In this document: positions 138 through 16,418 of the stretch, piece by piece | Numbering within the stretch: position 1 is the first letter of the stretch | How the letters are laid out: every line of letters starts with the position of its first letter | Source of the DNA: Clostridia bacterium | GTDB lineage: Bacteria; Bacillota; Clostridia; Christensenellales; Aristaeellaceae | Assembly: GCA_045599485.1 (NCBI GenBank) | Contig: JAZRWA010000002.1 | Location: forward strand, 1-16,418 | Reading direction: 5' to 3' | Length of the DNA: 16,418 nucleotides | Notes under the pieces: model-generated | What the model saw: the letters and a program-made list of their open reading frames with translations, nothing else | Database searches by the model: none | Told to the model about the DNA's origin: nothing | Translations under genes and position numbers: made by a program

Positions 138-166
138 ATCATTCGGAGGTTCCTTTTTTGATGGCT

Positions 167-520: not shown

Positions 521-671
521 AGGGCGGCCTTCTTTCCGATAGAATCGCATCTTCCTTCCGGAGGGTACGCCCTATTTATAGCATTTGTATATGAATTGAA
601 GATGAACGCCCGTGTAAACTTTGTGAACGAACTGTAAAGCTTGTATCAAGTTTTGTTTATATACGACTTTT

Positions 672-1838: not shown

Positions 1839-1867
1839 GTTCTTCTTTTCCTTTCCATACAATACGC

Positions 1868-2025
1868 GGACATAAAAAATCCGCTCGCAGCAGACGGGCG
1901 GAATCATTGCTTCATGTCTCGCCTTATCTGTCGGTGTTGCCACCGCCGGAATTAGCACCGCACGTTTTACCGTCGGTTGCCGGGCATCATCGGGCCGTTC
2001 CCTCCGCCACTCTTGATAAGGGATG
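1868..2025 (-). promoter_or_regulatory. SAM-I (S-box) riboswitch with expression platform, upstream of metK
   Basis: The minus strand reads CTTATCAAGAGTGGCGGAGGGAACGGCCCGATGATGCCCGGCAACC...GTGCGGTGCTAATTCCGGC...ACAGATAAGG, which matches the S-box core almost base for base (aptamer about 1922-2022). It is followed by a short GC hairpin (CCGCCC...GAGCGG) and ATTTTTTAT (1872-1880), then the metK RBS. Confidence 0.93.
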
Positions 2026-2042
2026 TTCAGTTGTCGGTGCAT

Positions 2043-2071
2043 ATTATAGTAAAAACATCAGGGACTGTCAA
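2043..2071 (-). promoter_or_regulatory. Sigma-70/SigA-type promoter for the S-box-metK transcript
   Basis: On the minus strand, TTGACA (2071-2066) is followed by a 17-nt spacer and TATAAT (2048-2043), a perfect consensus. The predicted start lies about 15 nt before riboswitch helix P1. Confidence 0.8.
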
Positions 2072-2112
2072 GAGAAAAATATGCCGAATTTGGCAAATAC
2101 GGTAAAAAACAT

Positions 2113-2141
2113 TTGCCGAAAAAGTAAAAAAGCGTTAAGAT
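2113..2141 (+). promoter_or_regulatory. Possible promoter for the DUF1294 gene
   Basis: TTGCCG (2113-2118), a 17-nt spacer, then TAAGAT (2136-2141). Position is appropriate but the match is only partial. Confidence 0.35.
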
Positions 2142-2159
2142 GGGGAAGAGGTGAGAAGA

Positions 2160-2426
2160 ATGAAAATGATTCTGACGGTGATCATGGCAGCGATGAGCCT
2201 GATGGCGTTCGCACTGATGGGCATCGATAAGCACAGGGCAAAAGCGGGAAAATGGCGCATTCGGGAGCGGACGCTGTTCATCGCGGCCCTCTGTCTTGGG
2301 GCCCTTGGCGGCACGGCGGGCATGCGGGTGTTTCATCATAAAACGAAGCACTGGTATTTCAAAGTGTTTTTTCCACTGCTGGCAGTGCTGCAATTTGTTC
2401 TGCTGGTTTGGATCTGGATCAAATAA
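2160..2426 (+). CDS. DUF1294 family small membrane protein
   Basis: MKMILTVIMAAMSLMAFALMGIDKHRAKAGKWRIRERTLFIAALCLGALGGTAGMRVFHHKTKHWYF matches the DUF1294 pattern (IDK..A....WRI.E..L...A..GG..G......HKT.K..F). I prefer the ATG at 2160 over the GTG at 2151 because GGGGAAGAGGTGAG lies directly upstream. Confidence 0.85.
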   Translation: MKMILTVIMAAMSLMAFALMGIDKHRAKAGKWRIRERTLFIAALCLGALGGTAGMRVFHHKTKHWYFKVFFPLLAVLQFVLLVWIWIK

Positions 2427-2430
2427 AAAA

Positions 2431-2462
2431 GGCGGGAGGAAGCGTTTTCCTCCCGTCTTTTT
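2431..2462. terminator. Bidirectional rho-independent terminator shared by convergent genes
   Basis: Stem CGGGAGGAA (2433-2441) pairs with TTCCTCCCG (2447-2455) across a 5-nt loop. An A-run (2424-2430) precedes it and a T-run (2457-2462) follows. It lies between the DUF1294 stop (2426) and the Gx-transporter stop (2477). Confidence 0.85.
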
Positions 2463-2476
2463 GGCAGGCATGGATA

Positions 2477-2995
2477 TCAGTTGAAGCGGATCTTTGAGGA
2501 TTTGAGGTGGCGGATGGCAATGTTGGCCGCCAGACCGATGAGCAGACCGGTGACCAGACCGACCACCAGCAGGATGGCCAGATAATAGATCAGTTTTGGG
2601 GTCTGAAGCACCAGCATGGCCATCAGCACCTGACCGGCGTTGTGCATGGCACCGCCCGCCATGCTGACGGTGACCATGTGCAGCCCTTTGACATGGCTGA
2701 GCAGGGACATGGCGATCATGCTGAGCAGACCGCCGGCGGCGGCATACATCATGGCGCTCACGCCGCTGAACATCAGGCCGGACAGCACGATTTTGAGGGC
2801 CATCAGGGCGAACGCGGTGGGAATATCCAGCAAATAGATGGCAAAGATCAATACGCCGTTGGAGAGCCCCAGTTTGATGCCCGGAATGCCGGGGACGGCG
2901 GGCAGCATGCTTTCCACATAACCGAGCACCAGCATCAGCGCGGTGAGCAGGCCGCAGAGAGCAATGCGCTGAACCGAATGTTTATGTTTGGCCAT
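2477..2995 (-). CDS. Gx transporter family membrane protein (Hpre_diP_synt_I / PF07456-like)
   Basis: 172 aa with about 5 TM segments. The N-terminal RIALCGLLTALMLVLGYVESMLP...IPGIKLGLSN is typical of this family, and it has the usual partnership with an upstream NusG-domain-II gene. RBS AAAGGAG. Confidence 0.75.
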   Translation of the reverse strand: MAKHKHSVQRIALCGLLTALMLVLGYVESMLPAVPGIPGIKLGLSNGVLIFAIYLLDIPTAFALMALKIVLSGLMFSGVSAMMYAAAGGLLSMIAMSLLSHVKGLHMVTVSMAGGAMHNAGQVLMAMLVLQTPKLIYYLAILLVVGLVTGLLIGLAANIAIRHLKSSKIRFN

Positions 2996-3013
2996 AAGGG
3001 CTCCTTTCGGAAA

Positions 3014-3559
3014 TTATTGGGCGTTCATCATTGCCAAGATCTCATCGGGGGTGTAGAGTTCAGCAACCACCTGATTCGGCAGACAGATGATCATGTTATA
3101 CAGGATGCGGGTATCTTTGTTTTCAAGCGTGACCTCGCCCTGATGGACACAGTCTTGTGAGTCACAGCTGGCGGATTCCATGTACATGCCGTTGGGAGTG
3201 ATATGCAGGTAATTTTCCAGCTGCTTTCCGGAGCCATCCGCGGCGGACTGGACGATGGGGAAGGTGTAAGCTGTCTCAGAAGGCAGCGGCAGCCAGTACT
3301 TGTCTTTGCTTTGAACCGTCAGCAGGATATAGCCGGCAGCGGGCTCAGCGGTGGCTTGCGGTTCCGCGGTGAAAGCATCCTCGGGAGAGACGGAAGGTAC
3401 AGCGGTTGCGACAGGCGCGGGGGTGGGGGTGAAGAGCTCTGGCAGCGGCGGTACAGCGGTGGAAATGCCGCGAACACCGATGAAGAGCAGAAGGGCTGCA
3501 ACGGCAAGGATGCCGCCGATGACCCAGATGTTTTTGTTGCTGAAAGGTTTGCGGGACAT
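3014..3559 (-). CDS. NusG domain II-containing (DUF1312/PF07009-like) membrane-anchored protein
   Basis: The start at 3559 (MSRKPFSNKNIWVIGGILAVAALLLF, one TM anchor) is preceded by GGAGGAATT. The C-terminal CDSQDCVHQGEV....ICLPNQVV matches the C..q.C...G......ivClPn..v motif of NusG_II proteins. Confidence 0.75.
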   Translation of the reverse strand: MSRKPFSNKNIWVIGGILAVAALLLFIGVRGISTAVPPLPELFTPTPAPVATAVPSVSPEDAFTAEPQATAEPAAGYILLTVQSKDKYWLPLPSETAYTFPIVQSAADGSGKQLENYLHITPNGMYMESASCDSQDCVHQGEVTLENKDTRILYNMIICLPNQVVAELYTPDEILAMMNAQ

Positions 3560-3612
3560 AATTCCTCCATAGACAAAAGGGATAAAACGGCAGAGGCGTT
3601 TCCTCTGAAATA

Positions 3613-3641
3613 ACAATAAATGATTTGTTTGAATTTGTCAA
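3613..3641 (-). promoter_or_regulatory. Probable promoter of the NusG_II/Gx operon
   Basis: On the minus strand, TTGACA (3641-3636) is followed by a 17-nt spacer and TATTGT (3618-3613). A short hairpin (CAGAGG-AAACG-CCTCTG) follows in the 5' UTR. Confidence 0.5.
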
Positions 3642-3658
3642 TCCATTTATATCGATAC

Positions 3659-3690
3659 CAAAAATCCGCAGCCCGAGGGACTGCGGATTG
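3659..3690 (-). terminator. Rho-independent terminator after the aldo/keto reductase gene
   Basis: The minus strand reads AATCCGCAG-TCCCTCGGG-CTGCGGATT followed by TTTTGG. The stem arms are 3681-3689 and 3663-3671. Confidence 0.85.
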
Positions 3691-3705
3691 TGTGTTGGTG
3701 GAAGA

Positions 3706-4812
3706 TTATTGGAGCAGACCTGCCAGCTCCGCCATGACGGAGGGCGTATCGATGTTCTGCGGGCAATGACCAGTGCAGGCACCGCAGCCGACGCAATCAG
3801 CAGGTTTACCGACGGATTCGATCTTTTCGGCAGCCCTTAGCGCACCGCGGCCATCCACCTTGTAGGCGTTATAGAGGTTAAGGTATTCGGGAATGTTGAT
3901 CTCCGCCGGGCAGCCGTCGCAGCAGTAGCGGCAGGAGGTGCAGGGAACCTGTACCTGATGACGGAACATTTCGCAGGACTTGAAAAGGAGTGCGGTCTCC
4001 TCATCCGTCAGGGGATTACCGTCAAAGGTGTTGAGGTTATCCTGAAGCTGGTCCATGCTGCTCATGCCGCTCAAAATGACATGTACGGCAGGCAATGTGC
4101 GCACAAAGCGCAGGGACCAGGAAGCGATGCTCCAATCGGGATGGGCGGCCTTCAGCGGGGCTTCGGCTTCGGGGGTCAGCGCCGCGAGACGTCCGCCACG
4201 AACCGGCTCCATGACCATGATGGGGATGCTGCGCTTGGCAAGAATATCGTATTCCTGCTTGGAGGTGCCGTAGAGCCAGTCATAATAATTGATCTGCAGC
4301 TGAGCAAAATCCCAGGCGTGATGATCGGCAAAGCGGGTCAAGGTTTCAAGAGAAGCGTGGCTGGAGAAGCCGAGGTAACGGATACGCCCCAGACGCTTCT
4401 GCTCCAGGAAATACTCGATGGCACCGCTGCAAAGGTAGGAATCGATGTTGTTGTCGAGCAAGCAATGGATCAGATAAAAATCGATGCGATCGGTCTGAAG
4501 ACGCTGCAGCTGCTCTTCGAACACAGCTTTGTAATCGGGGTTGGCACCGATGAAATACTTGGAAGCCAGATAGAAGCTGTCACGGGGATGCTTGGTCATG
4601 CAGGCGCCCAGGCATTTTTCGGATTCGCCGCCGCTGTAGGTATAGGCGGTGTCAAAATAGTTGATGCCGTTTTCATAAGCGCTGTCGATGATCTGATGGG
4701 CGGCCGGATAATCGATGGCGGCTTTGGGGTCGGCGGGGTTGACGGTGGGAAGACGCATGTTGCCCATGCCGAGCGTGGACAGGCGAATGCCTTGATAATC
4801 CTTGAACTGCAT
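3706..4812 (-). CDS. Aldo/keto reductase with C-terminal 2x[4Fe-4S] ferredoxin-type module (COG1453-like)
   Basis: The start at 4812 (MQFKDYQGIRLSTLGMGNMRLP) is preceded by GAAGGGAGA. AKR core motifs are present (GINYFDTAYTYSGGESE, RIDFYLIHC). The C-terminus carries two Cys clusters, CTSCRYCCDGCP and CVGCGACTGHCP. Confidence 0.88.
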   Translation of the reverse strand: MQFKDYQGIRLSTLGMGNMRLPTVNPADPKAAIDYPAAHQIIDSAYENGINYFDTAYTYSGGESEKCLGACMTKHPRDSFYLASKYFIGANPDYKAVFEEQLQRLQTDRIDFYLIHCLLDNNIDSYLCSGAIEYFLEQKRLGRIRYLGFSSHASLETLTRFADHHAWDFAQLQINYYDWLYGTSKQEYDILAKRSIPIMVMEPVRGGRLAALTPEAEAPLKAAHPDWSIASWSLRFVRTLPAVHVILSGMSSMDQLQDNLNTFDGNPLTDEETALLFKSCEMFRHQVQVPCTSCRYCCDGCPAEINIPEYLNLYNAYKVDGRGALRAAEKIESVGKPADCVGCGACTGHCPQNIDTPSVMAELAGLLQ

Positions 4813-4851
4813 TGGAGATCTCCCTTCGGGATAATTTACACTTTCGTATTT

Positions 4852-4880
4852 TTTATACAATAAAATGCGCCGAAGGTCAA
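4852..4880 (-). promoter_or_regulatory. Probable promoter of the aldo/keto reductase gene
   Basis: On the minus strand, TTGACC (4880-4875) is followed by a 17-nt spacer and TATAAA (4857-4852). Confidence 0.55.
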
Positions 4881-4912
4881 GAAAAACTTCGGAGCTGACA
4901 CGAAAACGGTGA

Positions 4913-4948
4913 TAAAAAAAGAACAGGTCAGTTCAGGACTGCCTGCTC
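4913..4948 (-). terminator. Rho-independent terminator of the infC-rpmI-rplT operon
   Basis: The minus strand reads AGCAGGCAG-TCCTGAA-CTGACCTGTT (9 bp with one bulge) followed by CTTTTTTT. It starts 16 nt after the rplT stop. Confidence 0.8.
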
Positions 4949-4963
4949 TTTCTTTTATAAGGC

Positions 4964-5314
4964 TCAGGCCTGCTTGGCGGTTTCGGCCAGCTTGGCGAAA
5001 GCTTCGGGATCGCTCACAGCGAGATCAGCCAGCATCTTGCGGTTGATGTCGATGTTGGCCTTCTTCAGGCCGGCGATCATGGTGGAGTAGTTCATGCCGT
5101 ACAGGTGAGCGGCGGCATTGATGCGGGTGGTCCACAGGCTGCGGAACTCACGCTTACGCAGCTTGCGGCCGGTGTAAGCGTAGCGCAGGGAGCGGCGGAC
5201 CTGCTCACTGGCGGTGCGGTACTGCTTGGACTTCGCGCCAAAATAGCCCTTCGCCAGCTTGAGCGCCTTACGGCGCTTCTTATGGGCGGTTACAGCCCTT
5301 TTAATACGTGCCAT
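4964..5314 (-). CDS. rplT: 50S ribosomal protein L20
   Basis: [39 protein letters not shown]... is a canonical L20 sequence. RBS AAGGAGG. Confidence 0.98.
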
Positions 5315-5341
5315 GGTTAATCCTCCTTGCCGGAAATGGGC

Positions 5342-5542
5342 TTATTTGTACGGAATCAGCGTGCGGATGGTAGCGGCTTCGGCATTGTTCTGCAGAACGC
5401 CGCCCTTACGCATATGACGGATACGCTTGGTGGTCTTCTTGTTCAGAATGTGGTTGCAGTTCATGCTCTTGTGCTTGACTTTGCCGGTCTTGGTCAGGGA
5501 GAAGCGCTTTGCTGCACCGCGATGGGTCTTTTGCTTAGGCAT
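5342..5542 (-). CDS. rpmI: 50S ribosomal protein L35
   Basis: MPKQKTHRGAAKRFSLTKTGKVKHK... is a canonical L35 sequence. RBS GGAAGGAGG. Confidence 0.97.
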   Translation of the reverse strand: MPKQKTHRGAAKRFSLTKTGKVKHKSMNCNHILNKKTTKRIRHMRKGGVLQNNAEAATIRTLIPYK

Positions 5543-5567
5543 GAGGTTTCCTCCTTCCGGGAATTAT

Positions 5568-6128
5568 TCAGGCCTTGGGCTCCGCTGCGGGGCGGGCCTT
5601 TTCGGCCTTTGCGGGTTTATCCGCCTTGGGGGCCAGAATCATAATCATGTGGCGGCCGTCAAGAGCAGGCCGTTTTTCAACGACGGAGACGTCCTTGGTG
5701 CGATCAATAAAATCCTGCATGACCTGCAGACCGATCTCGGAATGCGTGATCTGTCTGCCGCGGAAGCGGATGCTGACCTTGACCTTGTCACCGCCGGTGA
5801 GGAATTTGATGGCATTCTTGGCTTTGGTCTGCACATCGTTTTCTTCAATGGTGGCGGAAAGCTGCACTTCCTTGATGGAAATGACCTTCTGGTTTTTGCG
5901 CATATCGCGCTCACGCTTGGACTGCTCATAACGGTATTTGTCGTAGTCCATCAGCTTGCACACGGGGGGAATGGCGGTCGGGGAGATCTTTACCAGATCC
6001 AAACCGGCTTCTTCTGCCAGCTCCATTGCGCGCGCGGTGGGAAAGACACCCATCTGAGCGCCGTCAGCGCCAATCAGACGTACCTCGCGGTCACGGATTT
6101 CATCATTGATCATTAATTCGGCGGCTAT
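5568..6128 (-). CDS. infC: Translation initiation factor IF-3, probably starting at a non-canonical ATA codon
   Basis: INDEIRDREVRLIGADGAQMGV...VKISP...PPVCKLMDYDKYRYE is a canonical IF-3 sequence. The first ATG (6113) has no SD at usable distance. GGAGGTG (6143-6137) lies 8-10 nt upstream of an in-frame ATA (6128-6126), giving the N-terminus (M)AAELMINDEIR. The 3' end and protein identity are certain; the start codon is inferred. Confidence 0.9.
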   Translation of the reverse strand: MAAELMINDEIRDREVRLIGADGAQMGVFPTARAMELAEEAGLDLVKISPTAIPPVCKLMDYDKYRYEQSKRERDMRKNQKVISIKEVQLSATIEENDVQTKAKNAIKFLTGGDKVKVSIRFRGRQITHSEIGLQVMQDFIDRTKDVSVVEKRPALDGRHMIMILAPKADKPAKAEKARPAAEPKA

Positions 6129-6149
6129 GGTCGATGCACCTCCATCATG

Positions 6150-6285
6150 TTATGCTTTCTTTTTTGTAAAAAAGAAAAGCCGGCGGATGAAACCACCCGC
6201 CGACATACATAACTGCAAATCGGATGCCTGCACCGGGCGAAACAGTATTCGCGGGGTGAGGAGCGGGCGGCTCCTGCTTAACGCA
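6150..6285 (-). promoter_or_regulatory. Structured infC leader with intrinsic terminator (L20-leader-type attenuator candidate)
   Basis: About 130 nt lie between the promoter and the infC RBS. Hairpins are AGGAGC-CGCCC-GCTCCT and CACC-CC-GCGAA-TACTGT-TTCGC-CC-GGTG. A strong terminator follows: GTCGGCGGGT-GGTTTC-ATCCGCCGGC plus TTTTCTTTTTT (6168-6204). In Firmicutes this position is occupied by the L20-binding leader; class membership was not verified against a covariance model. Confidence 0.6.
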
Positions 6286-6290
6286 CAGCT

Positions 6291-6319
6291 ATTATAGCAT
6301 GAAGCCGCCGCGGTGTCAA
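6291..6319 (-). promoter_or_regulatory. Promoter of the infC-rpmI-rplT operon
   Basis: On the minus strand, TTGACA (6319-6314) is followed by a 17-nt spacer and TATAAT (6296-6291), a perfect consensus. Confidence 0.8.
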
Positions 6320-6339
6320 CTGTTCTCAGCGCTTTTTTG

Positions 6340-7425
6340 TTACAGCAGATGAGAGCAGACGGGATCAAAGGAAAGGTAGGCGGTATCGCCGACGGAGAAG
6401 ATCTTTTTGTTGGCGGGGCAGTTGTCGGCAATGCGCACCAGCGTATCGCCCACACGGACGTGATAGTTCTGGTAGCTGCCCATGAAGCAGCTCAGCTCCA
6501 CCGTGCAGGGCAGATCGCCTTTGTCGGAGATGCAGATGGCCTCAGGGCGCAGCACGATGGTGCCTTCGCTGCTGGCTTTGATGCCTTCCGAAGCAGAGAC
6601 ACGGACGATGTGACCGCCGACGTTGACCGCGGCGATGCCCTCCGCGCAGGAGACGACAGAACCCTTCAGGAAGTTGCATTCACCGATGAAATCGGCCACA
6701 AATTCGCTGTTGGGATGATAGTAGATCTCTTCGGGGGTACCCATCTGGGCGATGACACCGCCCTTCATCAGAATGATCTGATCGGACAGGGACATGGCTT
6801 CACTCTGATCGTGGGTGACATAGATGGCGGTGATGCCGATCTTTTGCTGAATACGGCGGATCTCAGTGCGCATTTCCACTCTCAGTTTGGCATCCAGATT
6901 GGAGAGCGGCTCGTCAAAGAGCAGAACACCGGGCTCCACCACCAGAGCACGGGCCAGGGCGACGCGCTGCTGCTGACCGCCGGAAAGCTGGTTGGTCATG
7001 CGCAGCTCCATGCCGTCCAGCTTGACCAGGGACAGGATGTTCATGACCTTTTCGCGGATGACATTCTTGGGTACGCCGCGCAGCTTCAGACCGTAGGCCA
7101 CGTTATCGTAAACGTTCATATGGGGGAAGAGCGCGTAGGACTGGAACACCATGGCGGTATCGCGCTTGTTGGGGGTCAGCTCGTTGATGGGCTGGTCCGC
7201 CAGATAGATCTCGCCCTCATCGGGGGACTCAAAACCGGCGATCATGCGCAGCGTGGTGGTCTTGCCGCAGCCGGAGGGACCGAGCAGCGTGATGAAGCTG
7301 CCGGGGGCGATATCCAGATTGCAATCCTTCACGGCATAGAAATCGGCGTGGGTTTTGGGATCCTTGTAGATCTTGGAGATATGCTCCAGGCGAACGCCCT
7401 TGGGGGCTTTAACAGATTGACTCAT
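6340..7425 (-). CDS. ABC transporter ATP-binding protein, FbpC/AfuC/PotA-type with C-terminal TOBE-like domain
   Basis: Walker A GPSGCGKTT, Q-loop, signature LSGGQQQRVALARAL, Walker B LLFDEPLSNLD and H-loop VTHDQ are all present. A C-terminal beta domain of about 120 aa follows. RBS AGGAGGAAAG. Confidence 0.95.
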   Translation of the reverse strand: MSQSVKAPKGVRLEHISKIYKDPKTHADFYAVKDCNLDIAPGSFITLLGPSGCGKTTTLRMIAGFESPDEGEIYLADQPINELTPNKRDTAMVFQSYALFPHMNVYDNVAYGLKLRGVPKNVIREKVMNILSLVKLDGMELRMTNQLSGGQQQRVALARALVVEPGVLLFDEPLSNLDAKLRVEMRTEIRRIQQKIGITAIYVTHDQSEAMSLSDQIILMKGGVIAQMGTPEEIYYHPNSEFVADFIGECNFLKGSVVSCAEGIAAVNVGGHIVRVSASEGIKASSEGTIVLRPEAICISDKGDLPCTVELSCFMGSYQNYHVRVGDTLVRIADNCPANKKIFSVGDTAYLSFDPVCSHLL

Positions 7426-7442
7426 GATCTTCTTTCCTCCTG

Positions 7443-9194
7443 TCAGGCTTTGTACAGCGCTTTGGTTTCACGCTCAAATTTGCGGGCCAGGCGCTTCTGC
7501 TTGTGATCGGTGTCGAAGTAGCGCAGTATGCCGTTAAGCAGCAGGATCACGCCGTAGGTGATGACGATCAGCACAGTGGCGTAAGCGCAGGCGATTCCGT
7601 TTTCACCCTTCTCGGCAAACTCGTTGATACGAACCGTGATGAGCAGGTATTTGGGAGTGACCAGCAGGATGATGGCGGAAATGGCTGTGATGGAACGGAC
7701 AAAGGTGGTGACGAGACCGGACAGGAAGCTGTCTTTGATGAGGGGCAGCGTGACGGAGGTGAAAACCTTGCCGGAGCCGGCACCCATATCGTAGGCGGAT
7801 TCCTCGATGGATTTGTCGATCTGCCGCAGAGCGGAGATGCCGGAGCGTGTACCGGTGGGCAGCGAGCGGACGATGAACACGATGACAAGAATCGTACCTG
7901 TGCCGTACAAGCCCTGCATTACGCCGGAATGGAAAAGACCGGCGGAATAACCGCGGATGTAGCCGATACCGAGAACGGTTCCGGGGACAGCCATGGCCAG
8001 AATGGAGACAAACTCGATGAAGCCTTTGAGTTTGAATTTCTTTTTGACCACCAGATAGCTGATGATCATACTGAGCAGGGCGGTGATGGGCGTGGCAATG
8101 AGGGACAACAGGATGGAATCCTTATAGGCACGCAAGCCATCGATCTTCCACATGTTGACGAAGTGATCGGTGACCAGCGTGTAGTTGCGGCCCCACAGCT
8201 TGAACATGGCACCGAAGGGAACGGCGACATAAAGCAGTACGACAAAGATGCTGACGAGCGCGCAAAGCACAGACAGAGGATAGCGGACGGATTTGTCCTC
8301 AATCAGCATACGGGCACGGCTGGCCTTGCCGGTGAGCGTCTGGGCGGTCTTTTTTTCCAGATAATACTTCTGGATCAGGAAGAGCACCAATGTCAGCATC
8401 AACAGGATGACGGCCATGGCGGAAGCACCGGGCATATCGTACGTGCCGCCCGTTACCTGCAGGTAGATGGTGGTAGCCAGCGTATCGTAATTGCCGCCGA
8501 TCATCATGGGGTTGGCAAAGTCGGCGACAGACTCGATAAAGGTGACCAGGAAGGCATTGCCAAGACCGGGCAGCAGCAGGGGGAGCGTTACGGACGTGAA
8601 GACCTTGAAGCGGCCGGCGCCCATATCACGGCTGGCTTCCTCCAGGGAGGGATCAATGTTTTTAAGCAGACCCGTCAGCATCATGTAGCAGACAGGGAAG
8701 AAGGTGAGGATCTGAACGATGGCAATGCCGTGCAGACCGTAGATGTTGTTGTTGCGGATGCCCAGCAGCGTACGGGTGACAAGACCGGAACGGCCGAAGA
8801 GCAGGATCATGCTCAAGGACAGCACAAAGGGCGGAGAAACAACGGGGAGCATGCTGACCACCTTGAACAGACCGCGTACCATGCGGGAACGAAGACGGAC
8901 ATAGACATCCACATAGGCAAACAGCAGTCCCAAAGTTACGGAACCGAAGCCTACGATGAGACCCAGCACGATGGTGTTGTTGAAGGCATTGCGGAAGGTA
9001 TACAGATCCCATACGCGGCCGAAAACCGAGAATGAGATGCCGTTGCTGCCGCTGATGGCATCGACCAACAGCATGGCAAGGGGATAGAGAATGAACAGCG
9101 AGAGGAAGATGACCAGAATGACGATGGCACCGATCAGCGTTGGATCGGCAAGGAATTTTTTACGGTCAAGTCGTTTGCTGTTTGATGTGGCCAC
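7443..9194 (-). CDS. ABC transporter permease, fused two-domain (FbpB/AfuB-type, about 12 TM)
   Basis: 583 aa with two repeats of the binding-protein-dependent permease module; the EAA-type loops are EEASRDMGAGRFKVFTSVTLPLL and EESAYDMGAGSGKVFTSVTLPLI. The GTG start at 9194 lies 7 nt after AAGGAGG. Confidence 0.93.
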   Translation of the reverse strand: MATSNSKRLDRKKFLADPTLIGAIVILVIFLSLFILYPLAMLLVDAISGSNGISFSVFGRVWDLYTFRNAFNNTIVLGLIVGFGSVTLGLLFAYVDVYVRLRSRMVRGLFKVVSMLPVVSPPFVLSLSMILLFGRSGLVTRTLLGIRNNNIYGLHGIAIVQILTFFPVCYMMLTGLLKNIDPSLEEASRDMGAGRFKVFTSVTLPLLLPGLGNAFLVTFIESVADFANPMMIGGNYDTLATTIYLQVTGGTYDMPGASAMAVILLMLTLVLFLIQKYYLEKKTAQTLTGKASRARMLIEDKSVRYPLSVLCALVSIFVVLLYVAVPFGAMFKLWGRNYTLVTDHFVNMWKIDGLRAYKDSILLSLIATPITALLSMIISYLVVKKKFKLKGFIEFVSILAMAVPGTVLGIGYIRGYSAGLFHSGVMQGLYGTGTILVIVFIVRSLPTGTRSGISALRQIDKSIEESAYDMGAGSGKVFTSVTLPLIKDSFLSGLVTTFVRSITAISAIILLVTPKYLLITVRINEFAEKGENGIACAYATVLIVITYGVILLLNGILRYFDTDHKQKRLARKFERETKALYKA

Positions 9195-9223
9195 AGGATG
9201 ACCTCCTTAATGATGAAGAGAAA

Positions 9224-9247
9224 GGGGATGGTCCGAAGACCATCCCC
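9224..9247 (-). promoter_or_regulatory. Intercistronic GC-rich hairpin between the binding-protein and permease genes
   Basis: The minus strand reads GGGGATGGTC-TTCG-GACCATCCCC (perfect 10-bp stem with a UUCG tetraloop) followed by TTTCTCTTC. It lies between the SBP stop (9264) and the permease RBS. Confidence 0.75.
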
Positions 9248-9263
9248 AGATCTAAGGCAAAGA

Positions 9264-10349
9264 TTATTCGGTCATGAAGCGGCTGTCGGCAGCGGCACCC
9301 AGAGCATCGAAATAATCGGTGATGTACTGAGTGGTGTTGGCCTTGGCATCTTCAAAGTCGTAATCGATCACGTTGTCGGGATCCAGACCCATGTCATAAG
9401 CGACCTGAGGCTGTTCGGCGTTGTCCAGAACCAGGAACTGATAGGATTCGTTGTCTTTGGCCAGGTTGACGCAATCGGGAGACAGGGCGAATTCCACCCA
9501 CAGCTTGGCGGCGTTGGGATGCTTGTTGCCGGTGAAGATGGCGGTGGCGCCGATCTCATAAGAGGTACCGGAGGCGGGGATGACCAGACCCACGTTGTCG
9601 TAGCCCTTCAGGATCTGGGTGATGCCGTCATGCAGGAAGCCGACGCCGATGACGCATTCACCGATACCGACCTTCTTGGAGGGGCCGGAGCCGGACTTGG
9701 TGTACTGGGCAACGTTCTTATCCAGTTCGACGAAGTACTTCATGGCTTCGTCATGGCCCTTCATCTGAACCATGGTGTTGATGACCAGCTTGGCGGTGCC
9801 GGCGGTGTTGGGGTTGGAAATCCAGATCAGACCTTTGTATTCGGGCTTGAGGAGATCGTCCCAATCCTGAGGAGCTTCCAGGTTCATGTCTTCCAGTTCT
9901 TCGGTGTTGACCATGAAACCGAGGATGCCCTTGTAAATGCCGTACCAGTAGCCATTGGCATCACGGAAGTTGGACTTGGTGATGTGGGAGGCGTTCTGGG
10001 CTTCGTAGGCTTCGAGCAGACCGAGACCAGCAACGATGTTGTAGGGATCGGTGGTGCCGCCGAACCAGACGTCAGCACTGGGATTGCCGTTTTCGGCAGT
10101 GATCTTGGCCTGCACCTCACCGGTGGACAGACGCTGCTTGCTGACCTTGATGCCGAATTCCTTTTCGAACTGGGCGCAGGCAGCGGACAGGTACATTTCT
10201 TCGCAGGAGCCGTAGACGATCAGTTCGCCTTCAGCCTGAGCAGCGGCGACCAGCTCGGGATCAAAATCGGCGATCTCGGCGGAGGCCGTCAGGGAGAAGC
10301 AGCCGAGCGCCAGCATGGCGGTCAGCATCAGAGCCAGGAACTTTTTCAT
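9264..10349 (-). CDS. ABC transporter extracellular solute-binding protein (family 1; AfuA/FbpA/PotD-like)
   Basis: The start at 10349 (MKKFLALMLTAMLALGCFSLTASA, a signal peptide and possible lipobox LALGC) is preceded by AAGGAGG. The mature part (LIVYGSCEE...FEKEFGIKV...ADVWFGG...GYWYG) fits the Fe3+/polyamine/sugar-phosphate SBP cluster. The substrate cannot be called from sequence by eye. Confidence 0.9.
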   Translation of the reverse strand: MKKFLALMLTAMLALGCFSLTASAEIADFDPELVAAAQAEGELIVYGSCEEMYLSAACAQFEKEFGIKVSKQRLSTGEVQAKITAENGNPSADVWFGGTTDPYNIVAGLGLLEAYEAQNASHITKSNFRDANGYWYGIYKGILGFMVNTEELEDMNLEAPQDWDDLLKPEYKGLIWISNPNTAGTAKLVINTMVQMKGHDEAMKYFVELDKNVAQYTKSGSGPSKKVGIGECVIGVGFLHDGITQILKGYDNVGLVIPASGTSYEIGATAIFTGNKHPNAAKLWVEFALSPDCVNLAKDNESYQFLVLDNAEQPQVAYDMGLDPDNVIDYDFEDAKANTTQYITDYFDALGAAADSRFMTE

Positions 10350-10398
10350 GGGAATTTTCCTCCTTGGATATAGAATATGGAATTTCCTGATAATCGAT

Positions 10399-10427
10399 AT
10401 TATATATTCGAATGTCACTTCTGTCAA
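10399..10427 (-). promoter_or_regulatory. Promoter of the ABC importer operon
   Basis: On the minus strand, TTGACA (10427-10422) is followed by a 17-nt spacer and TATAAT (10404-10399), a perfect consensus. The 5' UTR is about 40 nt with no riboswitch-sized leader. Confidence 0.8.
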
Positions 10428-10485
10428 TATTCAGAACAGAAAAAGCAGAGCATGGGAAAAACAAAAAATGTACAAAGGGAAACAG

Positions 10486-10515
10486 TTGACAACAGGGGGC
10501 GGATATGGTTAAATT
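10486..10515 (+). promoter_or_regulatory. Promoter of the T-box-controlled operon
   Basis: TTGACA (10486-10491) is followed by a 17/18-nt spacer and TTAAAT/TAAATT (10509-10515). The predicted start lies about 10 nt before the stem I K-turn. Confidence 0.65.
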
Positions 10516-10530
10516 AATGCCACAACCTGT

Positions 10531-10797
10531 TGCGATGACGGAATTATGGTTCCGGATTTCAACGCCCAGAGAGTTGGCGGATGGTGCGAGCCAATGCGTG
10601 AAACGGAAACCAGTCTCCCTCCCGAGCAGATGATGCGAAAGCGTTGGCCGTTAGCATGATCCGATTGGCCCCGTTAAAGGCTATGGACTTGATTGAGTCC
10701 GAGAGAACGTTTTTTTCCGGAACGGAAAGAAGCGTCCAGGGTGGTACAACGAAGTGATTTTCGCCCCTGAAACCGATATGGCTTCAGGGGCGTTTTT
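10531..10797 (+). promoter_or_regulatory. T-box leader (tRNA-sensing riboswitch) with intrinsic terminator
   Basis: Stem I elements: K-turn halves TGCGATGA (10531-10538) and GAGCA (10624-10628), AG bulge AGAGAG (10568-10573), and a distal loop containing GGTGCGA (10583-10589) closed by TTGGC/GCCAA. An F-box-like CCGTTA sits at 10648-10653. The T-box sequence CAGGGTGGTACAACG is at 10737-10751, and its GGG...CGAA can pair with TTCG.CCC of the terminator's 5' arm to form the antiterminator. The terminator is CGCCCCTGAA-(10 nt)-TTCAGGGGCG plus TTTTT (10762-10797). Confidence 0.92.
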
Positions 10798-10828
10798 CTA
10801 TCGATTTTAAGCTAAAGGAGAAGATACC

Positions 10829-12244
10829 ATGAGCGTTGTCAGACTGGCCGACATGACCATGCGTCAGAGCGGCAAAAATGTGCATTTCAGCCTTAACTTC
10901 AGAGAAAAGCTGGAGCTGGCCAAGCTGCTGGACCGGCTGGGCGTATCGGTAATTGAAGTCAGCGCCTTTGCCAACCCGAAGGTGGACCGACTGCTGGTCA
11001 AGTCGATCTGCTCTGCTGTAAAGGACAGCACCGTGGCGGTCTCTGTGGGGCTGAGCGAAGAAAACATCGCGCCCGTTCGCAGTGCTATGGAGGAATGCGC
11101 TCATCCGCGACTGCAGGTGACGGCTCCCGTCAGCGCCGTGCAGATGGAGTACCTCGCCGGCAAAAAACCCGCCGCCATGCTGGAAACGATTACCCGGCTG
11201 GTGAGCGCCTGCCATGCGGTTTGCCCTGATGTGGAACTGATCGCCGAAGACGCGACCCGTGCCGACAGCGCTTTTCTTTACGACGCTGTGCGCGCTGCCA
11301 TTGCGGCCGGGGCTTCCACGGTGACGCTGTGTGATGCCGCGGGCAATATGCTGCCCGATCAGTTTGCTTCCTTTATTAATGATGTAAAGGAAAATGTGCC
11401 CGAACTTCAGCAGATCACGCTGGGTGTGGCCTGCAGCAATGACCTTTCGATGGCCGACAGCTGCGCTGTTTCCGCCATCCGCTGCGGCGCGGGGGAGATC
11501 AAGTGTGCCGCGCACGCTGTGAACACCGTCAATCTGGGCAATGTGGCCCGTATTCTGGCAGTCAAGGGGACGGATTTTGACGCTGCGACCGATGTGACCA
11601 CCACGCAGATGAACCGTACGCTGGCTCAGATCTCCCGCCTGTGTGAGAGCGAGCGCAGTGAGAATTCCCCCTTCGATAACGGCGTACAGGCGGCGGACGG
11701 CACCTTCATGACCGTTCATGATGATATCACCGCCGTGATGAAGGCCGTCAACAAGCTGGGCTACGATCTGTCCGAGGAGGACAGCGTGAAGGTGTTTGAA
11801 GCCTTTGGACGCATTGCCGCCAAGAAGGAAACGGTCAACATCAAGGAACTGGACGCCATTGTGGCTTCCGCCGCGATGCAGGTTCCTTCTACTTATAAGC
11901 TGGAAAGCTATGTGATCAACACCGGCAACACCATCAGCGCCACGGCCCACATGAAGCTGAACAAGAACGGTGTGATGCTGGAGGGCATCAGCCTGGGTGA
12001 CGGTCCCATCGATGCCGCCTTCCTGGCGGTGGAGCAGATCGCCGGACGCCATTATGAACTGGATGATTTCCAGATCCAGGCCGTGACCGAAGGCCATGAG
12101 GCTATGGGCGAAGCAGTGGTCAAGCTGCGCAATGAGGGCAAGCTGTTCTCCGGCCGCGGCATTTCCACCGACATTGTGGGCGCGAGCATTCATGCCTATA
12201 TCAGTGCGCTGAACAAGATCGTTTACGAAGAAGCCGCTCTGTGA
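10829..12244 (+). CDS. LeuA/HMGL-like (DRE-TIM metallolyase fold) protein with LeuA_dimer regulatory domain; catalytic metal ligands substituted
   Basis: 471 aa, RBS AAAGGAGAAG. It is colinear with 2-isopropylmalate/citramalate synthases: IEVSAF vs IEAGFP, VELIAEDATRAD vs VEFSAEDAGRTD, and C-terminal GDGPIDAAFLAVEQI and GRGISTDIVGASIHAYISALNKI. However, DTTLRDGEQ reads DMTMRQSGK, HCHND reads ACSND (11429-11437), and GIGERAGN reads AVNTVNLGN. Confidence 0.85.
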   Translation: MSVVRLADMTMRQSGKNVHFSLNFREKLELAKLLDRLGVSVIEVSAFANPKVDRLLVKSICSAVKDSTVAVSVGLSEENIAPVRSAMEECAHPRLQVTAPVSAVQMEYLAGKKPAAMLETITRLVSACHAVCPDVELIAEDATRADSAFLYDAVRAAIAAGASTVTLCDAAGNMLPDQFASFINDVKENVPELQQITLGVACSNDLSMADSCAVSAIRCGAGEIKCAAHAVNTVNLGNVARILAVKGTDFDAATDVTTTQMNRTLAQISRLCESERSENSPFDNGVQAADGTFMTVHDDITAVMKAVNKLGYDLSEEDSVKVFEAFGRIAAKKETVNIKELDAIVASAAMQVPSTYKLESYVINTGNTISATAHMKLNKNGVMLEGISLGDGPIDAAFLAVEQIAGRHYELDDFQIQAVTEGHEAMGEAVVKLRNEGKLFSGRGISTDIVGASIHAYISALNKIVYEEAAL

Positions 12245-12269
12245 CGGCGAGACGGAAAGGAGATAACAA

Positions 12270-14786
12270 ATGAATCTTTCTTTTTCGACCCGCGGCTGGC
12301 AGGAATGCAGCTGGCAGGAGAACACCGAGACTGCGGTGACCATGCGCTTTCAGGGCATTGAACTTTATAATGTGACGGAGGATGAGCAGCTGACGGGCCG
12401 CGGCGGTCCTTTGCATAAATACAACACAGCAGCGACCGTGCGTGAGCTGAAGGAAAAGAAACTGACGGTGCCCTGCATCGACTCTTCCTGCGACATCTCG
12501 GTGCCGGGCAGTGTCGAGACCGTGAAAGCCATGCTGGAGCATGCCCGCAACATTCAGTGCCCCTGCGTGGCAGTAACGGCTCTGAAGGATAACGAAGAGA
12601 CGGTGCGTGCTGCATTGACCGAGCTGGTGCCGCTGGCGGCGGTGCAGCAGGTGACGATCCTGATCAAGACCACCGGCATTTATGCCGATACCGCCCGCCT
12701 GCGCGCGCTGCTGGACGATTTTGCCTGCGATGAGATCGCGGCGCTGTGGAGCATGCACCATCCCTATCGCCTGGCGCATGAATCCGCTGACACGACCATC
12801 AAGAATCTGGGCGGCTATGTCCGCCATGTGCATCTGCGTGACTCTGACGACGAGGGCGAAAACCAGCTCATCGGTGAAGGCACCCTGCCTGTCAAGGACA
12901 TGATGCGCGCCCTCAGCTCCATTGACTACGACGGCTTCATCAGCCTGGAATGGAAGCCCATGTGGATGGAGGAGCTGCCGGACCGCGAGGTCATTTTCCC
13001 GTACTTTGTCAACTACATGAACCGCTTTGAGCAGACCCGCGGCAAGAAAAAGGAGCTTTACGATAACGCTGCCCACACCGGCAAGTTCATCTGGAAGAAG
13101 GATCAGCTGATCAACCTGACCTTCCCGCAGGTGCTCGACCGTGTGGTGGAGGAGTTCCCCGACCAGTACTGCTTCAAATATACCACGCTGGATTATACCC
13201 GCACCTACGAGGAATTCCGCGAGGATGTGGACAACTTTGCGGCGGCGCTGATCTCGCTGGGCGTGAAGCGCGGCAGCAAGGTGGCCATCTGGGCGACCAA
13301 CGTGCCTGCCTGGTACATCACCTTCTGGGCTGCGACCAAGATCGGCGCTGTGCTGGTGACGGTCAATACCGCGTACAAGATCCATGAGGCGGAGTATCTG
13401 CTGCGCCAGAGCGATACCCATACGCTGGTCATGATCGAATCCTGTCTGGATTCCAATTATAAAGAGATCATCCGCGAACTGTGCCCGGAGATCGATTCCG
13501 CCCGTCCCGGCCAGCCGCTGCACTGCAAGAAGCTGCCTTTCCTGCGCAACGTGATCACTTCGGGCTTCCGCATGAAGGGCTGCCTGACGCTGGAGGAGGC
13601 GATGGAGCGTTCTTCTCTGGTGCCCCGTGAGGAAGTGCTGCGCATGGCGGCGCAGGTGCGCCCCGATGATGTGTGCAACATGCAGTACACCAGCGGTACC
13701 ACCGGCTTCCCCAAGGGCGTCATGTTGACCCATTACAACGTGGTCAATGACGGCAAACAGATCGGCGACCGCATGGACCTGTCCACGGCGGACCGTATGA
13801 TGATCCAGGTGCCCATGTTCCACTGCTTTGGCATGGTGCTTTCGATGACCAGCAGCATGACGCATGGCACCACCATGTGTCCGATGCCGTATTTCTCGGC
13901 GAAGGTGAGCCTGGCTTGCATCAATCAGGAGCGCATCACCTGCTTCAATGGCGTACCGACGATGTTTATTGCCATGTTCAACCATGCCGATTACCGCAAG
14001 ACGGACTTTTCCTACATGCGTACGGGCATCATGGCCGGCAGCGGCTGCCCGCCCGAACTGATGCGGCGCGCCGCGCAGCCCGATGAGATGCACATGCTGG
14101 ACATCGTCAGCGTGTACGGTCAGACCGAATCCGCCCCCGGCAGCACCATGAGTGCCTGCGGCGACCCGCTGGACCTGCGCGTCAACACAGTCGGCTATGC
14201 CTTCCCGCATGTTGAATGCAAGGTCATCGACCCCGAAACGGGCGAGGAAGTGCCCGTGGGCGTGAACGGCGAGTTCTGCTCCCGCGGCTACAACATCATG
14301 AAGGGCTATTACAAGATGCCCGAGGCGACCGCCGCCGCCATTGACAAGGATGGCTGGCTGCACAGCGGTGACCTGGCCTGCCGTGATGAACAGAACTGCT
14401 TCCGCATCACGGGACGCCTGAAGGATATGATCATCCGCGGCGGTGAAAACATTTATCCCAAGGAAATTGAGGAATTCATCTACACTCATCCCGCAGTCAA
14501 GGATGTGCAGGTCATCGGTGTGCCGGATAAGAAGTACGGTGAGGAGATCATGGCGTGCGTCATCCTCAAGGAGCCCGGCTCTGTGACGGTGGAGGAGATG
14601 CTGACCTACATCAAGGCTTCTCTGGCCCGCCACAAGGTGCCGCGCTACATCGAGTTTGTGGACGCCTTCCCGATGAACGCCGCCGGCAAGATCCTGAAAT
14701 ATAAGATGCGCGAGGAAGCCACCGAGCGTCTGGGCCTCAAGGGCGCGGCAGGCATCGATACCGCGTCTCCCGGCAAAAAGGAATAA
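12270..14786 (+). CDS. Fusion protein: N-terminal xylose-isomerase-like TIM barrel (sugar phosphate isomerase/epimerase family, about aa 1-250) plus C-terminal AMP-forming acyl-CoA synthetase (YngI/ACSF2-like, about aa 280-838)
   Basis: RBS GGAAAGGAG lies 7 nt before the ATG. The N-terminal part has HVHLRD, EGTLPV and YDGFISLEW, typical of AP_endonuc_2/PF01261. The C-terminal part has all adenylate-forming motifs: YTSGTTGFPKG (13686-13718), YGQTES, GEFCSRG, GWLHSGD, GRLKDMIIRGGENIYPKEIE and PMNAAGKILK. The frame is uninterrupted, and no internal start is associated with the junction. Confidence 0.88.
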   Translation: MNLSFSTRGWQECSWQENTETAVTMRFQGIELYNVTEDEQLTGRGGPLHKYNTAATVRELKEKKLTVPCIDSSCDISVPGSVETVKAMLEHARNIQCPCVAVTALKDNEETVRAALTELVPLAAVQQVTILIKTTGIYADTARLRALLDDFACDEIAALWSMHHPYRLAHESADTTIKNLGGYVRHVHLRDSDDEGENQLIGEGTLPVKDMMRALSSIDYDGFISLEWKPMWMEELPDREVIFPYFVNYMNRFEQTRGKKKELYDNAAHTGKFIWKKDQLINLTFPQVLDRVVEEFPDQYCFKYTTLDYTRTYEEFREDVDNFAAALISLGVKRGSKVAIWATNVPAWYITFWAATKIGAVLVTVNTAYKIHEAEYLLRQSDTHTLVMIESCLDSNYKEIIRELCPEIDSARPGQPLHCKKLPFLRNVITSGFRMKGCLTLEEAMERSSLVPREEVLRMAAQVRPDDVCNMQYTSGTTGFPKGVMLTHYNVVNDGKQIGDRMDLSTADRMMIQVPMFHCFGMVLSMTSSMTHGTTMCPMPYFSAKVSLACINQERITCFNGVPTMFIAMFNHADYRKTDFSYMRTGIMAGSGCPPELMRRAAQPDEMHMLDIVSVYGQTESAPGSTMSACGDPLDLRVNTVGYAFPHVECKVIDPETGEEVPVGVNGEFCSRGYNIMKGYYKMPEATAAAIDKDGWLHSGDLACRDEQNCFRITGRLKDMIIRGGENIYPKEIEEFIYTHPAVKDVQVIGVPDKKYGEEIMACVILKEPGSVTVEEMLTYIKASLARHKVPRYIEFVDAFPMNAAGKILKYKMREEATERLGLKGAAGIDTASPGKKE

Positions 14787-14799
14787 ACAGGAATCAAGA

Positions 14800-14833
14800 A
14801 ACGCTCCGTACAGAGGAATCTGTACGGAGCGTT
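14800..14833. terminator. Bidirectional terminator between convergent genes
   Basis: A perfect 14-bp stem, AACGCTCCGTACAG (14800-14813) with CTGTACGGAGCGTT (14820-14833), closes a 6-nt loop. It is followed by CTTTG on the plus strand and TTCTTGATT on the minus strand. Both U-tracts are weak. Confidence 0.75.
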
Positions 14834-14852
14834 CTTTGCGCGAAAAGGGATG

Positions 14853-16418
14853 TTAATTGTCAGTCAGAGTGATGTATTTGGGCAGGACATAGCCGCGGCG
14901 GCCGCGGGCTTCGATCAGATACCAGCCGTTCTGCTCGCCGAAGATGAGGACCTCGGTACCGGTATCCCATTCGCCCACTTTGGAGCTGGATTTGTCGGGG
15001 GCACAGCGGACGGAGATGGCGGTACTGCCGTTGGTTTTGCCGTTATAGCTGAGCTTGGCGGTGTGCTCGGGCGCGGTGCCGGGGGTGACGAAGCGAAGGC
15101 TGGAGGTGAGCACATACCCCGTATCGCCGTCGTATACGACCTTGCAGAATTTGCTGCCGTATTCCAGTACTTGTACCAGATAGCCGGCCTTGCAATGACG
15201 GGTCAGATAGGCGGAGGTGGAGGCGGAGCGGCGCAGGGCCGCGGAGCCCTCCTTGGGGGTGTAGATGACGCCGATCTGTTTGCTCTTTGGAACAGTGCTG
15301 CCGGCAAAAAATTCTTCGGTGGCGATCTCCAGAGAACGGCCGTTCAGGGTGACTTTGGAAGTGAGGGTACCCAGCTGCCTGAGGGTATATTGGGCGGGTT
15401 TGCTGCTGTAAGCTGTGTTGCCGGAGGAGACGGTCTTGGAAGAGGAGGAGGTGCTGTGAGCGGCGGTGTTATCGCTGCTGCCGTTCAGGGGGAGAACAGG
15501 GGCGTTTTGTTCGGAGAAAGCGGAAGCACTTGAAACGTTCTGTTCGGAAACATTCGGAGAGGGGACGGTTTCTTCAAGCGCTTCGGTACCCGAATACCCA
15601 TCGTAGAAGGTCAGCTTTCCCGTCTGAGCGTAACCGACCTTGCCGTTGTAGCTGACTTTGCACCAGCTTTCACCGCGGGAGACGATGTAGAAGTTTTCGG
15701 AGTCATAGATCCTTTTGACGGCGATCACCGCGGAAGAGGTGCTGGGCTGCTTGTAGATATTCATGGTGTCGGTGCGGTCCGTCGGTTCGAAATCACCTGA
15801 GACCGAGGTCCAGGGAGCGCCATCGTAAACGATGACGTAGTTGTCCATGGTCTCATTCGTCCCTTCGGCTTGCATCAGGATGGAAGCCCGGCCGGGGCTG
15901 CGCAGGGTGACCATGCCGTTGGAATCGACGGTGGCGACGTTTGGATTGTTGGAGGAATACAGGACTTTTTGTTCGACTCCATCGATGGTGCAGGTGTGTT
16001 TGAAGCTGATCTTCTGACCGACGGCAAGGACATTGCCGTGTTGGGTGATCCAGCTGAGCATCTGTGCGCTGTTGGCGGATTTATCCCACTTCCAGTTGAC
16101 GGCGGGGTCTTTTTTTGTGACGGTGACATGAATGGTGGTTTTGTAGGTGGTATCGGCGTCGGTATCGTATTCGACCATGTAGACCGTATAATTGCCGGTG
16201 TGATCGAAGCTCAGGGTGCCGCTGAAGGTGGACCAGATGCCTTTGCCCATGTCCTTGGTGATGGAAACGATTTCGGTGTTGGGCTGGCGTTCGGCGGTGC
16301 AGCCTCTGTCCACACGGCAGGTCAGATACTGGTCGGGACGCTGAATGACGGTATCGGCCAACACACAGGAGGTCATGCTCAACAGGAGGCACAGGACAAT
16401 GCAGACGGATCTTTTCAT
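14853..16418 (-). CDS. Secreted multidomain protein: signal peptide, Big_2-type Ig-like domain, Ser-rich linker and three SH3b-like domains
   Basis: The ATG sits exactly at the window edge (MKRSVCIVLCLLLSMTSCVLA). YSSNNPNVATVDSNGMVTLRSPGRASI is a Big_2 signature. Three W/Y-x-K/E-V...GYV/GYA SH3_3-like repeats are present (SWCKVSYNGKVGYA, KFCKVVYDGDTGYV, GWYLIEARGRRGYV). The upstream region is not in the window. Confidence 0.8.
   Translation of the reverse strand: MKRSVCIVLCLLLSMTSCVLADTVIQRPDQYLTCRVDRGCTAERQPNTEIVSITKDMGKGIWSTFSGTLSFDHTGNYTVYMVEYDTDADTTYKTTIHVTVTKKDPAVNWKWDKSANSAQMLSWITQHGNVLAVGQKISFKHTCTIDGVEQKVLYSSNNPNVATVDSNGMVTLRSPGRASILMQAEGTNETMDNYVIVYDGAPWTSVSGDFEPTDRTDTMNIYKQPSTSSAVIAVKRIYDSENFYIVSRGESWCKVSYNGKVGYAQTGKLTFYDGYSGTEALEETVPSPNVSEQNVSSASAFSEQNAPVLPLNGSSDNTAAHSTSSSSKTVSSGNTAYSSKPAQYTLRQLGTLTSKVTLNGRSLEIATEEFFAGSTVPKSKQIGVIYTPKEGSAALRRSASTSAYLTRHCKAGYLVQVLEYGSKFCKVVYDGDTGYVLTSSLRFVTPGTAPEHTAKLSYNGKTNGSTAISVRCAPDKSSSKVGEWDTGTEVLIFGEQNGWYLIEARGRRGYVLPKYITLTDN

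Follow-up and report, generated by a model that had tools for sequence, protein, structure and literature searches.

The window analyzed here, a 16,418-nt stretch of a Clostridia bacterium contig (JAZRWA010000002.1, positions 1 to 16,418, forward strand), carries a two-gene operon on the plus strand that is preceded by a structured leader. The first gene (10829-12244) encodes a LeuA-family protein with HMGL-like and LeuA_dimer domains, and its ATG at 10829 lies 8 nt downstream of a ribosome-binding site, AAAGGAG (10814-10820). The second gene (12270-14786) encodes a fusion of a xylose-isomerase-like TIM barrel with a PRK12583-like acyl-CoA ligase. It is followed by a perfect 14-bp hairpin and CUUUG (14801-14833, plus strand), which probably end the two-gene transcript despite the weak U-tract. 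Upstream of the leader, a consensus scan predicted a promoter-like site, TTGACA-18 nt-TAAATT (10486-10515, plus strand; 10/12 matches), with a predicted transcription start a few nucleotides before the leader. On the other side, a divergent ABC-importer operon has a perfect TTGACA-17-TATAAT promoter (10399-10427, minus strand) within the longest ORF call for its binding protein (9264-10427); hence, the true start codon of the binding protein lies further in.

The complete leader, delimited by its match to the T-box family RF00230 and by the fold of its terminator, spans 10526-10797 on the plus strand and comprises stem I, stem II, a stem IIA/B region, stem III, an antiterminator and a terminator. 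At the base of stem I, the 5′ strand of a K-turn (GA motif), GCGAUGA (10532-10538; sequence and model alignment), pairs with GAGC (10624-10627; model alignment), from which the codon position was counted back. The next helix is formed by GGAA (10540-10543, with GGA at 10540-42) and CUCC (10619-10622, with UCC at 10620-22), the latter containing a second CUC at 10619-21; its position closing the specifier loop is an A.C mismatch (A10543/C10619). In constrained folds, the specifier loop consists of UUA (10544-10546) opposite G-U-CUC-C (10613-10618), a longer version of the 3′ loop strand, AGUCUCCC, covering 10612-19. Upper stem I (10547-10612; model alignment and fold) contains a middle helix of 10547/8-10554 with 10604-10612, in which A10607 is bulged (strands GGUUCCG, 10548-54, and CGGAAACC, 10604-11), an upper internal loop with the sequence GAAACGGA (10600-07), a helix ACGC/GCGU (10562-65/10596-99), the AG bulge AGAGA (10568-10572), a distal helix of 10573-78 with 10590-95 (UUGGC, 10574-78; GCCAA, 10590-94) and the distal loop GGAUGGUGCGA (10579-10589). 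The hallmarks of a T-box stem I, namely a K-turn, an internal specifier loop, an AG bulge and a distal loop, are therefore all present. All coordinates originally given, among them those of the K-turn, the stem I helices, the AG bulge, both CUC triplets and UGGU, matched the sequence at 10400-10950.

Downstream of stem I, model alignment placed stem II at 10630-10660 and the stem IIA/B region at 10662-10676, and, together with the fold, an 11-bp stem III hairpin at 10708-10734. The antiterminator (10738-10768; model alignment) carries a 7-nt T-box bulge, UGGUACA, of which UGGU (10742-10745) is the predicted partner of A73-C-C-A at the 3′ end of the tRNA. An intrinsic terminator follows, with a hairpin at 10762-10792 and UUUUU at 10793-10797.

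A cmscan run with an E-value threshold aligned 10526-10771 to the full RF00230 model (positions 1-219) at 58.1 bits (E 3.5e-12), as expected from the original prediction that this region is a T-box. This score lies below the Rfam gathering cut-off for the family, 93 bits in the release used, and a default Rfam scan of the whole window reported a SAM riboswitch alone (RF00162, 1921-2022, minus strand, 81.8 bits). The sub-cut-off score is no warning sign, however, because 13 of the 14 T-boxes that the same family search recovered from the genome of origin (assembly G000; 2.13 Mb in 117 contigs, 82% complete) likewise scored below 93 bits, with one above.

As a yardstick for the codon position, we aligned 12 full-length T-boxes of the same genome to RF00230. 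Model columns 91-93 held a sensible codon in all 12 (UAC, GUC, AUC twice, UGG three times, GCC, UGC, UCC, GUA and UUC), and in each of them the N of UGGN complemented the discriminator of the genome's own tRNA for that amino acid, as identified with ARAGORN. The spacing was also constant in 12/12: the codon, 1 nt, a 4-nt helix strand, 1 nt and the K-turn GAGC, that is, 6 nt from codon to GAGC. In the window leader, columns 91-93 correspond to C10615-U10616-C10617, which is followed by C10618, CUCC (10619-22), C10623 and GAGC (10624-27). CUC at 10615-10617 is the leucine codon that the original prediction had favored; a different codon in the covariance-model alignment, or no T-box score at all, had been named as its refutation, and in that alignment CUC occupies the codon columns of a scored T-box. 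Since the K-turn sets UCC as the partner of GGA, the second CUC (10619-21) is base-paired inside the helix and is not a specifier. In a program that leaves the A.C position out of the helix, the default frame lands on UCC (Ser); the closing mismatch would thus push a naive frame onto a serine codon. CUC had also been called non-canonical, which did not hold: it is the commonest leucine specifier, accounting for 74-77% of leucine specifiers in TBDB (PMC7778990), and the flanking context alone departs from the textbook.

Orthologous leaders were collected through the downstream LeuA-family ORF (10829-12244). Homologs were present in 21 of 60 related genomes, nearly all with the T-box core GGGUGGUACC about 90 nt upstream. 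A scan of one genome per species yielded 80 loci with orthologs at 55-69% identity, mostly from Oscillospiraceae (Faecousia and others) and also from Acutalibacteraceae and Lachnospiraceae, all of them MAGs from gut and rumen; about 70 of the 80 have a UGGU-bearing T-box. We read the codon by alignment and then by counting back from the K-turn. Two misaligned leaders (L063 and L069) were omitted, and nine further ones were dropped from the final set of 72 distinct stem I leaders when a regular-expression parse took the wrong K-turn; these nine read CUG or CUC in the alignment-based parse. At the calibrated position, the 72 leaders read CUG (41), CUC (30) or CUA (1), all of which are leucine codons. 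The first two codon positions (C10615 and U10616) are invariant alignment columns, against a mean column identity of 65%, and no other register yields a single amino acid: the −1 register, for instance, gives Ser in 64 leaders, Pro in 6, Thr in 1 and Ala in 1. RF00230, run independently on ten loci, placed CUG, CUC or CUA in columns 91-93 in 7/7 LeuA-type leaders displayed. The 72 leaders are kin, and their counts are therefore not independent events; nevertheless, two fixed bases followed by a variable third are the pattern that selection for one amino-acid family would be predicted to leave.

The helices that hold the codon in place covary, as a check proposed with the original prediction had asked of the orthologous leaders. 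Just below the codon, 98.3% of cells in the 72 leaders are paired, with compensatory changes in 3/4 pairs and variants including GGAA/UUCC, GGAG/CUCC, GAAG/CUUC, GGCA/UGCC, GGCG/CGCC and GAUA/UAUC. This covariation was matched by none of 500 shuffles, and sliding the partner by one column lowered pairing to 41-43%. The K-turn pair in columns 1/104 alternates between GC (30 leaders) and AU (42 leaders). In the distal helix, pairing reaches 99.5% and 4/6 pairs show compensatory changes, and the window leader itself has a compensatory U-A instead of C-G at 10575/10593. RNAalifold on the MAFFT stem I alignment recovered the distal helix alone because the variable middle of stem I was not structurally aligned; we therefore tested only the cleanly aligned helices, using an explicit structure, and described the loop by constrained folding.

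The tRNA complement of the genome agrees with this assignment. G000:C40:27434-27518 encodes a tRNA-Leu(GAG), and A73 is found in this and the other four Leu tRNAs, matching the UGGU in the 7-nt antiterminator bulge. As the original prediction had recognized, UGGU calls for A73 and fits leucine without being exclusive to it; the Arg(CCG) and Pro tRNAs also carry A73. Both Ser tRNAs found have G73, with UGGC in the bulge of the genome's own Ser T-box, and the three genuine Thr tRNA genes have U73; these discriminators, which do not match UGGU, remove Ser and Thr. Arg and Pro are removed because of the position of their codons and the lack of conservation. Together, these results led us to conclude, with a probability of about 0.85, that 10526-10797 forms a full-length T-box riboswitch of the transcriptional class, with specificity for tRNA-Leu and with CUC at 10615-10617 as its specifier.

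Other ways of reading the specifier were weighed against this one. A serine codon shifted by a single base, either UCU (10614-16) or UCC (10616-18), gains some appeal from the UCU found in the −1 register of those 64/72 leaders and from the G.U wobble at the discriminator that TBDB tolerates (PMC7778990). That register turns to Pro, Thr or Ala in the other eight leaders, however, and the +1 register contains codons for Ser, Trp and Cys as well as stops, while the constant K-turn spacing in the 12 calibrating T-boxes points to CUC. Moreover, the G73 of both Ser tRNAs and the UGGC of the Ser T-box speak against it, no tRNA-Ser with the anticodon AGA or GGA was found in the 82% complete assembly, and the regulated gene is of the LeuA family; we therefore regard a serine specifier as quite improbable. 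The original prediction had further pointed to the upper internal loop, GAAACGGA (10600-10607), as offering ACG (Thr) or CGG (Arg). These triplets are preceded by GAA, and the genome's tRNA-Arg(CCG) has A73, but the loop lies outside the specifier loop, above the middle helix and 8 to 14 nt from the position fixed by the K-turn, its sequence varies across the 72 leaders (alignment A1 columns), and the U73 of the three Thr tRNAs mismatches UGGU, leaving this placement barely credible. Hardly any weight can be given either to dual specificity through overlapping codons, Leu CUC plus Pro CCC (10617-19), after the manner of the two-tRNA T-box of Clostridium acetobutylicum: although CCC directly follows in the leader and a tRNA-Pro(GGG) with A73 is present, the +2 register is unconserved (GGU, GAU, CCC, GCU, CAU and CCU), C10619 is a helix position, and the loop here is small whereas that of the dual-specificity case is enlarged (PMC11404447).

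The leucine T-box also has to be weighed against the possibility that this copy is decaying, without proper tRNA sensing, and that the operon is largely off through an intact terminator or expressed by low constitutive read-through. The window leader is the most divergent of the set, scoring 58 bits against 95-125 for the orthologs, and it departs from 12 of the 98 columns conserved at ≥90% compared with a median of 2 departures among orthologs. The stem III flanks of the discriminator domain, RRRxG and AA, are not recovered: GU stands at 10734-35, and A replaces G at 10707. The AA after stem III, kept in all 65 aligned orthologs (100%), is replaced in a linker that reads UCC in the window, and a passage of PMC11404447 citing Li et al. 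(2019) describes this flank as necessary for tRNA binding. The T-box bulge ends in ACA instead of the consensus ACC, the stem II motif is GUUA instead of the usual AGUA (departure at 10651), and an A.C mismatch replaces a G.U pair at 10749/10764, making it the second A.C mismatch besides 10543/10619. On the other hand, every helix is retained, one of them by the compensatory pair of substitutions at 10575/10593, and the codon and UGGU are intact, as are the K-turn, the AG bulge and the distal loop. The same holds for the promoter-like site, for the terminator and for the two long ORFs, which would be unexpected for a silenced operon. Two exact-pattern scans of metagenome contigs and an exact-protein look-up found no independent assembly of the exact locus, and the departures private to this leader may include assembly noise. 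Given these departures and the failure of these searches to find an independent assembly, there is roughly one chance in ten that the switch is impaired, and we consider decay unlikely.

For the intact leucine T-box, the specifier loop is the part with an unusual context. As originally noted, the codon stands in AGU-CUC-C, with neither the preceding GAA nor the following purine. The loop-E/S-turn motif (AGUA...GAA) and the purine 3′ of the codon are typical of T-boxes, not universal, and we treated them as non-defining because loops lacking GAA are documented elsewhere, in streptococcal glyQS leaders (PMC11404447). Constrained folds gave a loop of 3 x 5-6 nt in 51 of the 72 leaders, a size too small to accommodate the AGUA...GAA loop-E motif reported in tyrS (PMC2879506). 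GAA precedes the codon in only 2/68 aligned leaders. The base after the codon, a conserved purine in described T-boxes (PMC2879506, PMC11404447), is A in 26, C in 26 and G in 20 of the 72 leaders, and it is C in 12/17 leaders from the same genus and family. In the same genome, 7 of the 12 other T-boxes lack GAA and 2 of the 12 have a pyrimidine after the codon. Because the absence of GAA and a C following the codon recur in the lineage, with parallels among the other T-boxes of the genome, this context is a habit of the lineage and not peculiar to the leader. The lineage breaks three rules of automatic specifier calling, which expect the codon to be preceded by GAA, to end in C and to be followed by a purine.

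The expression platform consists of two mutually exclusive hairpins with overlapping arms, which share the segment 10762-10768; the antiterminator folds at −9.1 kcal/mol alone and the more stable terminator, followed by its U5 tract, at −21.8 kcal/mol (RNAfold). This overlap is the classical arrangement. A simple terminator scanner failed on the leader terminator, owing to an internal mismatch, and also on the operon-end hairpin; folding recovered the former and direct reading of the sequence the latter. In the mechanism that we propose, transcription would start near 10521 and stem I would fold so that its compact loop (5′ UUA; 3′ G-U-CUC-C) offers CUC to the anticodon GAG of tRNA-Leu, with the AG bulge and distal loop stacking on the tRNA elbow. 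The A73-C-C-A end of an uncharged tRNA would then pair with UGGU and stabilize the weak antiterminator (10738-10768), allowing RNA polymerase to read into the two-gene operon. With charged tRNA, the far stronger terminator (10762-10797) would form and transcription would stop. Under such tRNA-Leu-gated antitermination, the operon, consisting of a metal-less LeuA copy and the fusion gene, is proposed to be on under leucine starvation. The sequence analysis establishes the motifs of this leader, where its codon lies and that this codon is conserved as leucine, the covariation of its helices, the presence of a tRNA gene that matches it and the competition between its two hairpins; judging from these features, the leader would be expected to bind tRNA and to mediate antitermination.

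One of its close known counterparts, the Bacillus subtilis ilv-leu leader, works by transcriptional attenuation with uncharged tRNA-Leu, as predicted here, and shares the CUC specifier, the UGGU/A73 match and a LeuA-family gene downstream; in that system, experiments established that the CUC triplet confers leucine control, according to Marta, Ladner and Grandoni (1996) as cited in PMC2494555. The window leader differs in its compact loop of 3 x 6 nt, which has no AGUA/GAA loop-E motif, and in having C for the purine after the codon, and in place of a biosynthetic ilv-leu operon it precedes genes for a metal-less LeuA copy and for a fusion of a TIM barrel with an acyl-CoA ligase. With the leucine T-boxes of RF00230 and TBDB (PMC7778990), it shares the overall architecture, the majority specifier CUC and, with the A.C position taken as helix, a codon 2-4 nt away from the specifier bulge's 3′ end. 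It departs from them in scoring below the gathering cut-off and in the absence of the stem III AA flank from this copy. The streptococcal glyQS T-boxes (PMC11404447) likewise have no conserved 3′-side GAA and an altered 5′ AGUA; they respond to glycine, however, keep a purine after the codon and have a long 3′ loop strand (10 nt), and no K-turn is recognizable in them, whereas the window leader combines a clean K-turn with a short loop. The leader is an expected member of a well-known RNA family, an ordinary leucine T-box whose compact specifier loop is typical of its lineage.

The genes under its control are less ordinary. Compared with the solved LeuA structure 3EWB, the metal-binding motifs of the LeuA-like protein are changed from RD to RQ and from HCHDD to ACSND, so that the three metal ligands are lost, and the RD and HCHDD losses are common to 99 orthologs. 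The protein thus appears to be LeuA-derived, having lost its metal site and kept what looks like a leucine-binding-type regulatory domain. The fusion gene lies directly downstream of the LeuA-like gene in 99/102 loci, at 72-80% identity, and the next two ORFs of the window have no counterpart in the 102 loci. Within the 82% complete assembly of this genome, we found neither a further HMGL-like gene nor a LeuC-type gene of the aconitase family, and no LeuB that was convincing. Five operon-carrying relatives with 95-100% complete genomes (G019, G025, G033, G039 and G060) have neither LeuA nor LeuB above curated cut-offs, and across these five and G000 no catalytic LeuA, LeuC-type protein or LeuB passed those cut-offs. 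In three of the relatives (G019, G025 and G060), an HMGL-like synthase (~340 matched residues) is encoded about 3 kb from an Iso_dh-family gene, a pair that could be a citramalate or Re-citrate-type cluster.

The leucine T-box here may control a conserved protein pair that includes no synthetase, no transporter and no working biosynthetic enzyme. No other single clue tells more about what the genes behind a T-box do than the amino acid that it reads. One tentative idea, which we hold as a possibility short of an even chance, is that the LeuA-like protein and the fusion form an undescribed leucine-salvage module in gut and rumen Oscillospiraceae, for example, one activating isovalerate for reductive carboxylation to leucine, and that this module is gated twice, the RNA responding to the charging of tRNA-Leu and the protein to free leucine. 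The leucine assignment is the firm piece of this idea, around which we infer the substrate, the sensor role and the physiological role of both proteins. That assignment makes two puzzling, widely conserved genes of gut bacteria candidates for leucine supply.

Several side observations accompanied this analysis. CUG outnumbers CUC among the orthologous leaders (41/72; L038-L117 and L017-L035), whereas CUG occurs in 7% of leucine T-boxes in TBDB, where the usual third-position C is explained by stem II contacts (PMC7778990). We sought a cause of the CUG preference by comparing the stem II motif with the third codon base and found no link; AGUAAU dominates both the CUG and the CUC groups. A second, divergent T-box with an AUC (Ile) codon lies a few hundred bases from the Leu T-box in several orthologous loci (L039:3292-3534, L047:1015-1250 and L053:236-468, all minus strand), on the side where the window has its ABC-importer operon.

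Among the ARAGORN calls in the same genome, one with the anticodon CUA (labeled Pyl) at G000:C50:8748-8823 has a Glu/Gln-like D-arm and may, from these features, act as an amber suppressor; the same contig carries a Trp T-box about 5 kb away. Two other odd calls are a tRNA-Phe with the anticodon AAA (G000:C48:33332-33406) and a 91-nt ‘tRNA-Thr(GGU)’ without a CCA end (G000:C59:38572-38662), the latter probably a false positive. Finally, a 132-nt T-box match at G000:C86:35209-35340 (L013), in which 80 stem I model positions are reduced to 9 nt and the bulge reads UGGC, may represent a T-box variant with a truncated stem I.
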